Below are positions 3,420-62,585 of a stretch of DNA of 64,000 nt, piece after piece; the first letter of the stretch is position 1; each line of letters opens with the position of its first letter. Under the pieces are notes generated by a model, which did not search any database, had not been told where the DNA came from, and was given only the letters and a program-made list of their open reading frames with translations. The stretch is from a virus (taxonomy: Duplodnaviria > Heunggongvirae > Uroviricota > Caudoviricetes): positions 39,273-103,272 of IMG/VR virus record IMGVR_UViG_3300032272_000001; one strand, given 5' to 3'. Made by a program: the position numbers and the translations under genes.

Positions 3420-4088
3420 ATGATTATATCAAAAGAAACAATAGCAGTATTACAAAATTTTCAGACTATTAATCCGTCTATTATTTTACGCGAAGGTAAC
3501 GTAATTGCAACACAAACCCCTAGCGATACAATTCATGCTAGGGCAACAATTGAGGATGAATTTCCAAGAACAATTCCAATTTATGATCTGAATAAATTTC
3601 TTGGTATTCTTGCACTAACAAAAGAAGATAGTGATATCGAATTTAGTGAACGGTATATGACTATCACTCAAGGAAAATCGACTGTTAGATACGCATATAC
3701 TTCTGAAAGCCAAATCGTATCACCACCAATCGATAAAACTATAAATATTAGTAATCCTGATGTTACATTCGAACTAACACAAGAAGTGTGGTCAAGACTT
3801 TCTAACGCAATGCGTGTTATGGGATTTTCTGAATTTGCCTTTGTTGGTGAGGATGGAATACTTAGTATCCAAGCTCTTAGCACTAAAAACGATTCATCTG
3901 ATACGTATTCAACAGATATTGGCGAAACAGATAAAACATTTTCTTGTGTAATAGAAGCAACAAATATGAGAATTATCCCTGGTAATTATTCTGTATCTGT
4001 GCTAAGTAAAGGATTATCACATTTTAAAGGAGATATCGCAGAATATTGGATTGGTATTTCCACAAGATCAACATTTGGAGAAGAATAA
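3420..4088 (+). CDS. 45: Sliding clamp (T4 gp45-like)
   Basis: MIISKETIAVLQNFQTINPSI, IYDLNKFLG, NMRIIPGNYSV. Confidence 0.93.
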   Translation: MIISKETIAVLQNFQTINPSIILREGNVIATQTPSDTIHARATIEDEFPRTIPIYDLNKFLGILALTKEDSDIEFSERYMTITQGKSTVRYAYTSESQIVSPPIDKTINISNPDVTFELTQEVWSRLSNAMRVMGFSEFAFVGEDGILSIQALSTKNDSSDTYSTDIGETDKTFSCVIEATNMRIIPGNYSVSVLSKGLSHFKGDIAEYWIGISTRSTFGEE

Positions 4089-4513: not shown

Positions 4514-4966
4514 ATGGATACTATTATTTTTGATTTTGATGGTACGCTTTGTGATATTTCTCATCGCCTGCATCATATTAAAGGACCACAAAAGAATTGG
4601 GATGCGTTTTATGCTGATTGTGATAAAGATGTTCCGAAACCACATATTATTGCGATGTTGAATGCTTCCTTAGAACAAGGTTATAATGTTGAGATTTGGA
4701 CAGGAAGAACTGAAGCTGTTTTAGAAAAATCACATAAATGGTTATATAAAAATGGTGTTCCTGGATTTCGAAAAGAAAGCTTATGTATGCGCCCTCCTGG
4801 AAATTATACGCCAGACCATATTCTTAAAAAAGAATGGTTGGATGAATTTATGAGTTATAATGCATATGCTCCATTATGTGTGTTTGAAGATAGACAACGT
4901 GTTATCGATATGTGGAAAGACAATAATGTTTTGTGTTTTCCAGTAGATCCATGGAAAGAGGAATAA
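4514..4966 (+). CDS. HAD phosphatase resembling the 3'-phosphatase domain of PseT/Pnkp
   Basis: DFDGTL, IWTGR, LCMRP, VFEDR motifs. Confidence 0.85.
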   Translation: MDTIIFDFDGTLCDISHRLHHIKGPQKNWDAFYADCDKDVPKPHIIAMLNASLEQGYNVEIWTGRTEAVLEKSHKWLYKNGVPGFRKESLCMRPPGNYTPDHILKKEWLDEFMSYNAYAPLCVFEDRQRVIDMWKDNNVLCFPVDPWKEE

Positions 4967-7386: not shown

Positions 7387-7712
7387 TGAAATATATCAAA
7401 AAACCTATTGTGGTTGAAGCTCATCCATGGTATGTTAATGGTGATCATCCAAATGATGGTAATCCATTCACAGAAGGTGATGTTGTTCGTTATTTCAGAC
7501 ATCCAGACATAGCCGGAAGTAGGCTATGTCAAAAATGTGAATTTAGTATGCATCACCATGGATGGATTGACAATAACACAGAAGATGGATATACTGTATG
7601 TCCTGGTGATTATATTGTGATGAAACAAGATGATTCATATGAAGTATATTCACAAAAGAATTTTCACAATCAATTCGAAAAATATGAGAAAGAAAATGAA
7701 ACAATATCATAA
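7380..7712 (+). CDS. Hypothetical phage protein (PGDY motif)
   Basis: YIKKPIVVEA...VCPGDYIV. Confidence 0.6.
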   Translation: MLVKYIKKPIVVEAHPWYVNGDHPNDGNPFTEGDVVRYFRHPDIAGSRLCQKCEFSMHHHGWIDNNTEDGYTVCPGDYIVMKQDDSYEVYSQKNFHNQFEKYEKENETIS

Positions 7713-8331
7713 AATTATTAACGTTTGGAATCGTGATCCAAACGATAAACACAGAACTCTTATTGAAAATTCGTGGGCAACTGAAGATTTTGCATATCTT
7801 GCTAATAATGAATGGACATGCACAGAAAAGGTAGATGGAACCAATATTAGAGTAATTATTGATAATGACGGTTCTGTTGAATTTCGTGGTAAAACCGATA
7901 ATGCACAAATTCCTCCGATGTTAGTGAAAGCATTAGAAGAAAAATTTCCAAAAGAAATTACCGAAAAAATTCGAGATACTTTTGGATTTGGTGTTACTCT
8001 TTATGGTGAAGGATATGGGGCAAAAATTCAGAAAGGTGGTGGAAACTATCGTTCTGATCAAGGATTTGTTTTGTTTGATATTAATGTTGATGGTATTTGG
8101 TTGCGCCGCCACGCCATTCTTGATATTGCTCATTCATTTAATATTGGTTTTGTTCCAATTATAAAAAGTTGTACTCTTCATGAAGCAATTGAAATTGCTC
8201 GTAAAGGATTTGATTCGCGGTGGGGTGATTTTCCAGCAGAAGGTTTGATTTGTAAACCTTCTGTTGAGATGAATAATCGTCTTGGACAGCGAATTATCAC
8301 AAAAATCAAAACAAAGGATTTTAAATGTTAA
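7696..8331 (+). CDS. RNA ligase (Rnl2-like nucleotidyltransferase)
   Basis: Motif I TEKVDGTN, LYGEGYG, FVLFDI, AEGLICKP, IITKIK. Confidence 0.85.
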   Translation: MKQYHKIINVWNRDPNDKHRTLIENSWATEDFAYLANNEWTCTEKVDGTNIRVIIDNDGSVEFRGKTDNAQIPPMLVKALEEKFPKEITEKIRDTFGFGVTLYGEGYGAKIQKGGGNYRSDQGFVLFDINVDGIWLRRHAILDIAHSFNIGFVPIIKSCTLHEAIEIARKGFDSRWGDFPAEGLICKPSVEMNNRLGQRIITKIKTKDFKC

Positions 8332-33358: not shown

Positions 33359-34402
33359 ATGGCGAAAAAAATAAAATCTTTTTCACGTAGTTTAGATAAG
33401 CAAATACAAGGGGCAGAACCAGAATTTAATGGTTCTGCTTCAAGAATAGAAATTGCTAAAGCATTCAATTGGTATAATTACTCATACACAATCACAGAAA
33501 CTAAAAAATGGATACTATTATGGATGCAAAATGATGGCTATTCTGTTGATGATGTGAGTATAGTCAAATCTAGTAATAATAGTAAAATTACTCAGACACA
33601 AGCATCTATAGCAAGAATGCTTACAAATGGATTAATTGAGAAAAAGCTTGAATTGAATTTGCGGAATGCTATTAATGAAGCAATAGAAAATCCATACAAA
33701 GAAACAATTAAGACAAAACCAACAACAAAAACTATTGAGAATAAATTAATTGCTGATTTGGATGATTTTCTTGATTGTTTTTATAATAACGACTATAAAG
33801 AAACGAATGACAATCTAGACGAAATCATTAGTAATCACACCGTCGCTGTAATGAAAGAAGCATCAATTTATTATGAAAAAATAAAACAAGATGTATCAAG
33901 TAACGATGATGGATACACGCATATTAATAAAACTAAGAAAAAAAGATATTTATCATTACTTGATAATATGCTTAATAAACTAAATATTGTTACTGTTGTT
34001 AAAAAAACGAGGGCACCAACAAAGAAAAAACCAAAAACAGTTATTCAAGGAAAAATAGCTGATAAATTAAAATATTTAGATCATCATGAATTAGGATCTT
34101 CTATACAACCAACATCAATATTCGGTGTTAAAGTATTGTGGACTTATAATCCAACAATTCGAAAATTATCAAAATATGTAGCATGTAAAGATGCGTTAAG
34201 TATTAAAGGACAAACTATTTTAAATTATGATCCTGAACAATCATTCACTATCACGATTCGAAAACCAGAAGAAACTGTTCCTAAGATTATCGGTGATGGT
34301 ATAAGAACACTTAATAAATATGTTTCATCATTGAATGTTAAAAGAACTACAGTAATTCAAAGAATTAATGACAAAACTCTTTTATTAAGGACACAAAAAT
34401 GA
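33359..34402 (+). CDS. Conserved T4-like hypothetical protein
   Basis: AFNWYNY, LWTYN, KG.TI.NYDPE.S..ITIRKP, RIN..TLLL. Confidence 0.65.
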   Translation: MAKKIKSFSRSLDKQIQGAEPEFNGSASRIEIAKAFNWYNYSYTITETKKWILLWMQNDGYSVDDVSIVKSSNNSKITQTQASIARMLTNGLIEKKLELNLRNAINEAIENPYKETIKTKPTTKTIENKLIADLDDFLDCFYNNDYKETNDNLDEIISNHTVAVMKEASIYYEKIKQDVSSNDDGYTHINKTKKKRYLSLLDNMLNKLNIVTVVKKTRAPTKKKPKTVIQGKIADKLKYLDHHELGSSIQPTSIFGVKVLWTYNPTIRKLSKYVACKDALSIKGQTILNYDPEQSFTITIRKPEETVPKIIGDGIRTLNKYVSSLNVKRTTVIQRINDKTLLLRTQK

Positions 34403-34797
34403 ATTCGAACAATGTAGTAAAGTTGTTTCCTGAACAACCATCAGCAATAGAATTATTTGAAGGTGATAGCAATCAAGAACCAAATGATGAAGGGTTAGAA
34501 GTTAATCTTGAAGAAATTGTTGAAGATATGCAAATAACAACGTATACTAATGTTTGTGCGAATAGAATTGGTGATGAATTGTCAAATCTTGGTATGGACC
34601 CACAAGAAGCACCAAAAGATTTTTGTTTTTTAGTTGAAGCTATATTATCATACATATATAAACATCATGATAGAGAACATGCTTTACAAGATATAGCTGA
34701 AGATTCTATAGTGATAGAAGATGATGAAACATTAATTTATAATTTCATCGAACCAAGAATTAATCCTATAGAGGAAAATAATGGCGATTCTGATTGA
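34399..34797 (+). CDS. Hypothetical acidic protein
   Basis: ORF track; NNVVKLFP start. Confidence 0.6.
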   Translation: MNSNNVVKLFPEQPSAIELFEGDSNQEPNDEGLEVNLEEIVEDMQITTYTNVCANRIGDELSNLGMDPQEAPKDFCFLVEAILSYIYKHHDREHALQDIAEDSIVIEDDETLIYNFIEPRINPIEENNGDSD

Positions 34798-35617
34798 TTT
34801 AAACCATTTGGCCTTTTCTAGTTATTTTGCTAGTGTTGGTAATCATGGTAATAAAAGTGTTGATGTTGATGCATTTCGTAAAATGTTGTTGAGTAATATC
34901 AATATCATTATGCATAAATTCAAACATTATGGTGAGGTTGTTCTTGCGTTCGATTCAAAAACAAATTGGCGTAAAGATGTTTTTGAATATTATAAAGCCC
35001 GTAGAAAAATCAACAGAGACAAATCTGATGTTGATTGGTCAAGCATTTATTCTGCTATTGATGTTGTTACAAATGAATTGGTTGATAATTTTCCATATCA
35101 TTTGATTAGAATTGATGGTGCAGAAGCAGATGATGTTATTGCGGTATTGGCAAAAAATATACAACCATCTGTTATTATTTCAAGTGATAAAGATTTCAAA
35201 CAATTACAAAAATATGAAGGTATTTGCCAATATGATCATATTAAAGAAACAATGTTGGTAGAAAAAGATCCAGAACAATTTTTGCATGACCATATTTTAT
35301 GTGGGGATTCTGGTGATGACATACCAAACATCAGAACAAGAGATGATATATTTGTTTCTGAAGGTCGCCAAGAAGTTATGACTAAAAAAAGGAAATTGGA
35401 ATTGGTTGATATTAGAAATTCACCAAACCATAAATATTATGATAGATGGTTAAGAAATCAATCTTTAATAGATTTTGATTTTATTCCAGAGAATATCGCA
35501 TCATCAATAATTGATGAACATGCGAAAGGTCCAAAAACAAAAAATCGTAGCAAAGTCCTAAACTATATTATCAAAAATCGTTTAGGAAATTTAATCAACA
35601 AAGTAAGTTATTTTTGA
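34781..35617 (+). CDS. rnh: RNase H / 5' flap nuclease (T4 Rnh)
   Basis: ILIDLN, LAFDS..NWRK, AEADD, ISSDKDF.QL, GDSGDDIPN. Confidence 0.93.
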   Translation: MAILIDLNHLAFSSYFASVGNHGNKSVDVDAFRKMLLSNINIIMHKFKHYGEVVLAFDSKTNWRKDVFEYYKARRKINRDKSDVDWSSIYSAIDVVTNELVDNFPYHLIRIDGAEADDVIAVLAKNIQPSVIISSDKDFKQLQKYEGICQYDHIKETMLVEKDPEQFLHDHILCGDSGDDIPNIRTRDDIFVSEGRQEVMTKKRKLELVDIRNSPNHKYYDRWLRNQSLIDFDFIPENIASSIIDEHAKGPKTKNRSKVLNYIIKNRLGNLINKVSYF

Positions 35618-61645: not shown

Positions 61646-61851
61646 AAAGATGTCTTGCATCATGGTAGTTCTTGATGCAAGACATTGAATTGCTTGAATG
61701 ATGTACACCAAAAGAATATGGCAAATGGATAGTGTTTAGCTATCGCCTACCAAACAAGGAATAAACCAGAACGTTGATGTTCAAATGTGTTTGGGTTCTT
61801 TTGATGTAGATTATGTTTTTTTTTATTATTGACATATGAGATTGTATCTTG

Positions 61852-61859
61852 TATAAATA
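61852..61859 (+). promoter_or_regulatory. T4-type late promoter TATAAATA driving tmRNA
   Basis: Exact consensus immediately upstream of the tmRNA acceptor piece. Confidence 0.7.
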
Positions 61860-61864
61860 ACTAA

Positions 61865-62205
61865 TCGTTGATGACGCATCACGAAGCTTGGCTGGACGTG
61901 GGGGCAGTACCCACCAGCTCCACCATAAGAACATTGACTGACGGCGGCGCAACATGGTCCGAATGTCAGTGCCCGACTATATGCCATTCGGAATAGAGCA
62001 TATACAGTCAATGTTCTTTTGATGGGGCTGAAATAGGTTCGACAGTGGGTGTAGGAAATGTAGAGATGATGGGATGGCCGCCTTATAGACTAGTTAGCCA
62101 CTTAATGGCTGTTTAAATGCAAACGATAATAGCATTGAGAACTTCGCCCTAGCTGCGTAGCTTCTCTGAGGCTGCTAGGGAGCCTTATCACCCAATCCCT
62201 AGCAC
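61865..62205 (+). ncRNA. ssrA: Circularly permuted two-piece tmRNA (alphaproteobacterial type); outer ends approximate
   Basis: Acceptor piece first: T arm GTGGG-GGCAGTA-CCCAC, CAGCTCC-ACCA ending 61925. Coding piece starts GGGGCTG at 62024 (G3.U70). Tag ANDNSIENFALAA* at 62119-62160. Confidence 0.93.
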
Positions 62206-62211
62206 TAATTA

Positions 62212-62238
62212 ATAAAACGAGTTAATAACTCGTTTTAT
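62212..62238 (+). terminator. Palindromic hairpin downstream of tmRNA, likely bidirectional terminator
   Basis: ATAAAACGAGTTA-A-TAACTCGTTTTAT. Confidence 0.55.
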
Positions 62239-62310
62239 CCAACTACCGGCTATTATTGGCCAAAATTCCGAGAGGGTTGGGAATAAAATCTCATTGTCTA
62301 AATTAGTTAG

Positions 62311-62339
62311 TTGACAAAACCCTCTTCATGTGTTAGTAT
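62311..62339 (+). promoter_or_regulatory. Sigma70-type promoter with extended -10
   Basis: TTGACA-17-TAGTAT, TG extension. Confidence 0.65.
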
Positions 62340-62369: not shown

Positions 62370-62585
62370 ATGTCTATAATTCCAGACCAGAATTTCACTA
62401 ATAGAGAAAAGGTTAAATTTGCTGATGTTAATAATGCTGATGAACTGTATATTGGTGAAATAGTTGGAAAGATTACTAAAAATGTAATCTGTCTTTATCT
62501 CGTGGAATGTGAAGAATACGCAAAGAAACATAAATCTGAATATCATGTTTTTGCAATGCCACATACATGCTTAGAAAGAATTTAA
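62370..62585 (+). CDS. Hypothetical protein
   Basis: SD GAGGAGG. Confidence 0.6.
   Translation: MSIIPDQNFTNREKVKFADVNNADELYIGEIVGKITKNVICLYLVECEEYAKKHKSEYHVFAMPHTCLERI

Follow-up and report, generated by a model that had tools for sequence, protein, structure and literature searches.

The prototype of the bacterial two-piece tmRNA is that of Caulobacter (Keiler et al. 2000, as cited in PMC9004378). Among phages, a two-piece tmRNA has been described for Melnitz, and 53 two-piece forms were counted among 133 unique phage tmRNAs, mostly from aquatic phages (Buchholz et al. 2022, PMC9004378); a 2025 tmRNA database holds 79 unique bacteriophage sequences (PMC11915505). As these two sources cover it, a phage-encoded alpha-type two-piece tmRNA is an already published kind of gene, and the one we report here is a new, somewhat divergent member. 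The Melnitz SsrA (MZ577097.1, 45984-46436) is likewise a permuted tmRNA of the alpha type, and Melnitz itself a lytic, aquatic T4-like myophage. The host of Melnitz, OM43, is a Methylophilales bacterium and not an alphaproteobacterium, and a host transition was inferred by the authors, who also reported a glutamine riboswitch in the 3' part of the Melnitz tmRNA (PMC9004378).

The gene that we analysed lies in a 64-kb stretch of phage DNA, hereafter the window. It has in common with Melnitz an identical promoter design (TTGACA, 17 nt, TATAAATA), the GGCAGUA T loop, a long intervening segment and an ANDN...ALAA tag (ANDNYVPVDYALAA in Melnitz); as here, no phage smpB is reported. The two loci are loosely syntenic, with the tmRNA upstream of gp33, then gp32, but gp33 lies within ~270 nt of the tmRNA in Melnitz and ~3 kb away here, the spacer measures 142 nt in Melnitz and 98 nt here, and Melnitz retains the AACAGAA pseudoknot loop that is absent from our gene. 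The glutamine riboswitch has no Rfam match here at E<=5. The Pelagibacter phages Mosig and HTVC008M also carry a permuted tmRNA in the same phage neighbourhood, theirs being located between an exonuclease and gp33-gp32. These tmRNAs differ from the present one in the T loop (UGCAACU in Mosig and UGCAAUA in HTVC008M, instead of GGCAGUA), in their shorter tags (GEDNFALAA and ANFNEYALAA, respectively) and in that a composite promoter is not evident. The alphaproteobacterial two-piece tmRNA (RF01849) and our gene share their gene order, acceptor stem and T arm; both have a GGCRGUA T loop, GAAAUAGGNUCGAC and an ANDN... tag, and in both a pseudoknot follows the tag frame. In the bacterial RNA, however, an additional 5' hairpin opens the acceptor piece, and the AACAGAA loop, invariant in sampled alphaproteobacterial tmRNAs, is replaced here.

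The carrier phage

The window corresponds to bases 39273-103272 of a 176,134-bp IMG/VR virus record with 127-bp terminal repeats, 33% GC and a completeness estimate of 100%. With a 176-kb genome, terminal repeats and no integrase anywhere in the 176 kb, the carrier is a large lytic T4-like myophage. Its replication genes include those for DNA polymerase, sliding clamp, clamp loader, regA, UvsX, helicase and primase. For the DNA polymerase, the best matches in isolated phages all come from cyanomyophages, at ~40% identity, and the carrier is only distantly related to isolates. The sole public run holding the tmRNA sequence is a sediment metagenome DNA run, which may be the source sample.

The phage encodes gp55 (genome positions 34372-34878; phrog_234, E 1e-41), gp33 (genome positions 104575-104844, followed by gp32; phrog_25387, E 1e-10) and gp45 (window positions 3420-4088). 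It also possesses a polynucleotide kinase (Pnk; window 4514-4966; phrog_415, E 4e-36) and an RNA ligase (window 7630-8331; phrog_548, E 2e-22), which are T4's pair for repairing cleaved tRNAs, and six tRNAs besides the tmRNA. Taken together, Pnk, RNA ligase, the tRNAs and the tmRNA fit a heavy investment in maintaining translation. The first-pass annotation had noted that no smpB is found in the window; this is correct, and the absence extends to the whole 176,134-bp genome, from which SspB and ClpP are missing as well. The tmRNA gene is ~3 kb upstream of gp33, with two tRNAs and several small ORFs between them. The ORF just downstream of the tmRNA (62370-62585) was considered as gp33 and rejected (BLASTP E 0.37, no PHROG match). 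Just beyond the window end, at C1:103301 and C1:103842 of the genome, two TATAAATA boxes with an identical 15-nt upstream sequence, gataatggtagcggg, sit between the tmRNA/tRNA region and gp33 and resemble a duplicated late-promoter unit.

An intact permuted tmRNA gene

ARAGORN calls a permuted tmRNA ('tmRNA*') at 61833-62251, with the tag ANDNSIENFALAA and its frame at 62119-62160. The Rfam model RF04321 (tmRNA_permuted) is matched over its full length (1-213) at 61863-62160, with 94.6 bits against a gathering cut-off of 47 bits and an E value of 4.7e-17 for the 64-kb window. These results bear out the earlier proposal of a phage-encoded tmRNA of the permuted two-piece type, and also its gene order: the acceptor piece (61863-61925 in the RF04321 alignment) is upstream of the coding piece (62024-62205), with 98 nt between them. 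All the features described below are on the + strand. The clade-specific model suggested at first pass as a check, RF01849 (alpha_tmRNA), gives a mixed outcome next to the ARAGORN call: it scores 63.3 bits on the core only (model positions 86-169 of 355), and the rest, including the 5' and 3' clade-specific parts, is unmatched. Related phage tmRNAs align to RF01849 over positions 1-355 with 95-121 bits. For RF04321, 94.6 bits is the lowest score of the phage set, whose other members reach 97-124 bits, while sampled Alphaproteobacteria mostly range from 120 to 170 bits. The gene at this locus is intact and stands alone; it specifies a circularly permuted tmRNA of the two-piece type and the alphaproteobacterial lineage, and by sequence comparison it appears to be the most divergent member found in its phage family.

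The acceptor piece contains the 5' strands of helix P2 (61864-61894) and the T arm (61898-61914), which consists of the stem GUGGG/CCCAC (61898-61902 / 61910-61914) and the loop GGCAGUA (61903-61909). By direct reading of the sequence, the acceptor 3' strand CAGCUCC (61915-61921), the discriminator A (61922) and an encoded CCA (61923-61925) follow. CAGCUCC pairs over 7 bp with the acceptor 5' strand GGGGCUG (62024-62030), and this stem includes G3:U70 (G62026:U61919). The T loop, G3:U70, the encoded ACCA and the tag frame were thus all correctly located in the first-pass annotation, whose start coordinate, 61852, is the first base of TATAAATA. In an 18-sequence alignment, G3:U70 is invariant (18/18) and positions 5-6 of the acceptor stem covary; acceptor stem, T stem and proximal P2 (P2a) form canonical pairs of several types in essentially all sequences, compensatory changes preserve the T stem and P2a pairs (18/18), and the proximal 3-4 bp of P2 are conserved and covarying. 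For P2 as a whole, whose 3' strands lie at 62043-62070, duplexfold yields a segmented pairing with the four-segment topology of relatives, of which a distal helix AUCGUU/GAUGAU is part. Its energy of -13.1 kcal/mol is no better than that of shuffled sequence, and most relatives, too, have a P2 duplex no more stable than expected by chance.

The coding piece comprises the acceptor 5' strand, a D-loop-like element, the P2 3' strands, the tag frame and a 3' pseudoknot. The D-loop-like element GAAAUAGGUUCGA (62030-62042; GAAAUAGGUUCGAC at 62030-62043) matches the family sequence GAAAUAGGNUCGAC. The tag reading frame found by ARAGORN opens with the GCA resume codon at 62119, encodes ANDNSIENFALAA and closes with UAG at 62158-62160; the resume context UAAAUGCAAACGAUAA, with UAAAU upstream, fits the family consensus. 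The alphaproteobacterial and phage tags that we compared all start with ANDN, and most end in (A/V/L)AA; ANDN...ALAA is the family pattern. In related phage tags the middle varies while ANDN...ALAA is preserved, a pattern suggestive of a translated tag. The region of pseudoknot 1 (62071-62118) contains ~15 extra nt with an AGCCA/UGGCU hairpin before the resume codon, and no confident pseudoknot 1 emerged by hand or from an MFE fold.

A brute-force pseudoknot search identified a 3' H-type pseudoknot at 62167-62203, in which S1 (UGAGGCU/AGCCUUA) has 7 bp, S2 (GCUAGGGA/UCCCUAGC) has 8 bp and loop 3 has 8 nt. Its topology and loop length are those of relatives, and both stems are fully complementary though their sequence differs from that of relatives. 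It is the sequence of loop 3 that sets this gene apart. The family consensus for the loop is GG(C/A)AACAGAA, and AACAGAA is present in loop 3 of all complete comparison tmRNAs, phage and alphaproteobacterial (41/41). Here the motif is missing and the loop reads UCACCCAA, the conserved-loop counterpart of which is AAACAGAA. We found no function described for the AACAGAA loop in the literature searched.

The 98-nt intervening segment (61926-62023) is predicted to be excised. It forms a hairpin with a 14-bp basal stem, and a single-stranded UUUGAU leader precedes G1. The MFE is -33.7 kcal/mol (z = -3.9), and none of 200 shuffled sequences is as stable; Rfam has no match to the spacer at E<=5. The spacers of relatives are structured as well and 44-142 nt long, whereas in sampled alphaproteobacterial genomes most have 6-47 nt and one has 73. 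A 22-codon ORF in the spacer (61954-62022) was not counted as a gene, since it falls within the hairpin and a convincing Shine-Dalgarno sequence is missing. Small ORFs are also contained in the spacers of some related phage tmRNAs: in contig L122 a Shine-Dalgarno sequence accompanies a hydrophobic ORF of 24 codons, and the 142-nt Melnitz spacer (L129) begins GGAG...ATG. In a further contig, L137, the acceptor 3' end (CTCCACCA) is absent from the 330 nt upstream of the coding piece, and the spacer must therefore be longer than 330 nt.

A composite promoter

The gene had been described at first pass as being under a late promoter, a description that captures one half of the element. The octamer TATAAATA at 61852-61859 can be read both as a sigma-70 -10 element (TATAAA) and as a T4-type late-promoter box. 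In the carrier genome it occurs 26 times on the + strand and 7 times on the - strand, with several copies 27-44 nt upstream of start codons, and in a phage that encodes gp55, gp33 and gp45 we interpret it as a genuine T4-type late box. T4-type late promoters are -35-independent. Here, however, a perfect -35 hexamer TTGACA (61829-61834), preceded by an A/T-rich run, is positioned exactly 17 nt upstream of TATAAATA, and TTGACA, 17 nt and TATAAA make up a near-consensus sigma-70 promoter. The promoter is thus better regarded as composite than as a pure late promoter. Its spacing predicts a transcription start near 61864, where the Rfam match begins.

The TTGACA-N17-TATAAATA composite is found twice in the 176-kb genome, against 0.012 occurrences expected by chance. 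Of the 15 related tmRNA genes from phages or metagenomes for which upstream sequence is available, 13 are preceded by it at the same spacing, with a fully diverged spacer between the boxes. The Melnitz tmRNA also has it, as the sole composite in the 47.9 kb of Melnitz examined, and the authors of that work read the site as an early promoter (PMC9004378). As the composite is conserved while its spacer has diverged, both boxes look selected; its recurrence before most related phage tmRNA genes makes late-only expression unlikely, and the tmRNA is probably expressed both early and late. The second composite of the genome is outside the window, at C1:143430-143460 (L136:131-161), and precedes a lone + strand ORF of 99 aa (L136:174-473) among - strand genes; this ORF has no PHROG match. 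Downstream of the tmRNA, a terminator-like hairpin, AAAACGAGUU-AAU-AACUCGUUUU (62212-62238; MFE -11.6 kcal/mol, z = -4.8), closes the transcription unit; the gene has both a promoter and a terminator to itself. Farther downstream, the first promoter-like sequence is TTGACA-17-TAGTAT (62311-62339).

Phage relatives and the question of the host

A blastn search with positions 61800-62300 against 50,697 phage records gave no match, and the tmRNA family was reached only via pattern scans and relatives. The scans retrieved 12 IMG/VR and 12 metagenome contigs with the same core, several of them from Tara Oceans, and the tags of the retrieved contigs include ANDNFAPQDYALAA and ANDNIAYEDVRLAA. The contigs resemble the Methylophilales phage Melnitz and the Pelagibacter phages Mosig and HTVC008M (family Kyanoviridae). 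Melnitz and Mosig have an annotated SsrA; in HTVC008M an unannotated tmRNA was revealed by ARAGORN. The gene belongs to a family found in aquatic T4-like phages of the Melnitz, Mosig and HTVC008M group, of which the composite promoter and long structured spacers are shared traits. In exact-pattern scans of IMG/VR, neither this core combined with a 70-100 nt spacer nor the tag-coding sequence itself was matched (0 each); GGGGCTG...CAG was matched twice, both times with AACAGAA. These IMG/VR pattern scans thus disclosed no close relative of the AACAGAA-less variant. A search with a SpoVR-like neighbour recovered three distant phage contigs (43-44% identity), none of which has a tmRNA. The conserved blocks of the gene have a mean identity of 86% to phage and metagenome tmRNAs versus 76% to those of the sampled alphaproteobacterial genomes, a GC-biased sample; this fits inheritance within phages, and the tmRNA looks inherited within the phage lineage. 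In several related marine phage contigs a manA RNA (RF01745, 57-71 bits) is located directly 3' of the tmRNA (L070:5941-6150, L079:1917-2126, L068:8176-8382 and L077:1038-1214); Rfam detects none in the window at E<=5.

What does the tmRNA tell us about the host? An alphaproteobacterial host had been proposed at first pass, and the GGCRGUA T loop taken as a hallmark of that class. The assignment is not secure, given that Melnitz has the same tmRNA type and promoter design yet infects OM43. The T loop is not exclusive either. The 32-nt strand at 61894-61925 (GGAC, the T arm and CAGCUCCACCA) is letter-identical in 66 genome contigs (L002-L067), nearly all labelled Saccharibacteria, and five of these contigs that were checked with Rfam contain standard one-piece tmRNAs; since the strand, with its GGCAGUA, is shared with such tmRNAs, the loop is not confined to Alphaproteobacteria. 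We judge the identity with Saccharibacteria to be convergence, because a phage relative (L069) has the same T arm and no acceptor stem is more common than this one. In the host search the permuted-core pattern matched only two high-GC genomes, and the phage tRNAs looked too diverged for exact-match host scans. Because Melnitz infects OM43, the conserved blocks are closer to phage tmRNAs and the 32-nt strand recurs in Saccharibacteria, the alpha-type tmRNA, its GGCAGUA T loop included, is an unreliable marker of host class.

Discussion

Based on these observations, we propose that the RNA serves ribosome rescue with tagging, relying wholly on host factors and supplied throughout infection, and we consider this role reasonably probable. 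A precursor would be transcribed from ~61864, early by the host sigma-70 polymerase from TTGACA-17-TATAAA and late by the polymerase modified by gp55, gp33 and gp45 from TATAAATA, which would maintain supply through infection. Host RNase P would then cleave 5' of G62024, and host nucleases would trim the 98-nt hairpin spacer back to the CCA at 61925. Pairing in the 7-bp acceptor stem and the segmented P2 would hold the two pieces together, and host AlaRS would charge the RNA via G3:U70. Host SmpB and EF-Tu may then bring the RNA to ribosomes stalled on broken mRNAs; given that the phage has no SmpB of its own, function would depend on the host SmpB accepting the tmRNA. Nascent chains would gain ANDNSIENFALAA, and host proteases of the ClpXP type would degrade them. 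The phage would probably benefit by retaining access to ribosomes and amino acids at a time when host mRNA is being broken down and host tmRNA synthesis has ceased.

How does this compare with other explanations? Much as speculated at first pass, the tmRNA could be a spare part for counter-defence, made only late from TATAAATA, that replaces host tmRNA destroyed by toxins or nucleases or alters what becomes of tagged proteins. In its favour, TATAAATA is a real, conserved box, the phage owns an RNA-repair kit of Pnk and RNA ligase, and the tag is unlike those of the relatives examined. Nevertheless, a perfect TTGACA conserved together with the late box at 17 nt, across a diverged spacer, argues for sigma-70 selection and so for early expression as well, in line with the authors' reading of the Melnitz site as an early promoter (PMC9004378), and we see no sign in the data that host tmRNA is cleaved; a late-only role is rather unlikely. 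The RNA might instead be a decoy that binds host SmpB or ribosomes without completing trans-translation and thereby damps host tmRNA. A precedent exists in mycobacteriophage DS6A, whose CDS-less tmRNA-like RNA inhibits the endogenous tmRNA in E. coli (as cited in PMC11915505), and the replacement of the otherwise invariant AACAGAA loop, the strong promoter and the absence of a phage SmpB would all suit an inhibitor. Unlike the DS6A RNA, however, our gene keeps a full tag frame, a consensus resume context and the ALAA end; G3:U70 and the encoded CCA are retained, and the related tags preserve ANDN...ALAA around a variable middle. We deem an inhibitory function improbable.

The gene could also be a decaying passenger, namely an inherited or captured tmRNA gene that is unused and drifting. 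This is the most divergent member found, its RF04321 score of 94.6 bits is the lowest among phages (97-124 bits in the others, and mostly 120-170 in Alphaproteobacteria), and it has moved from the gp33-adjacent position of Melnitz and Mosig. Yet the 7-bp acceptor stem, the 5-bp T stem, the open tag frame with its stop, both promoter boxes and the terminator are intact, and the two stems of the 3' pseudoknot remain fully complementary despite their different sequence, which makes idle drift very improbable. Finally, tmRNA genes are common integration targets (PMC4383910; PMC9004378), and the locus could in principle be a fragment of host ssrA left by imprecise excision, or an attP. But this is a whole gene and not just the 3' end of one, it is preceded by a promoter of phage type, and the genome has no integrase and bears the terminal repeats typical of a lytic T4-like phage; an integration-site remnant is effectively refuted.

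What are the implications of a rescue system of this type? The general picture is unchanged, and ours is mainly an annotation-level result, which adds a divergent example to the published phage two-piece tmRNAs. The shared TTGACA-N17-TATAAATA predicts, for this phage group, transcription both before and after the late switch, and a natural variant without AACAGAA offers a ready-made test case for the function of the loop. In a wider speculation, which we think distinctly unlikely to hold as a whole, the phage tmRNA family would be a portable module expressed throughout infection from a dual sigma-70/gp55 promoter and able to use the SmpB of several bacterial classes, with the AACAGAA-less variant having changed its partner or fate. 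If that were true, the dual promoter and cross-class use of SmpB would be adaptations for phage life, and the variant might escape a host nuclease or regulator that reads the loop, or act with altered rescue kinetics.

One further feature of the coding piece concerns the heptamer CCCUAGC, of which one copy ends the tag frame (62147-62153) and a second serves as the 3' strand of pseudoknot stem 2 (62197-62203). Both copies are complementary to GCUAGGG at 62174-62180, which lies between them, so that the tag's end could be drawn into a helix-5-like pairing in competition with the pseudoknot.
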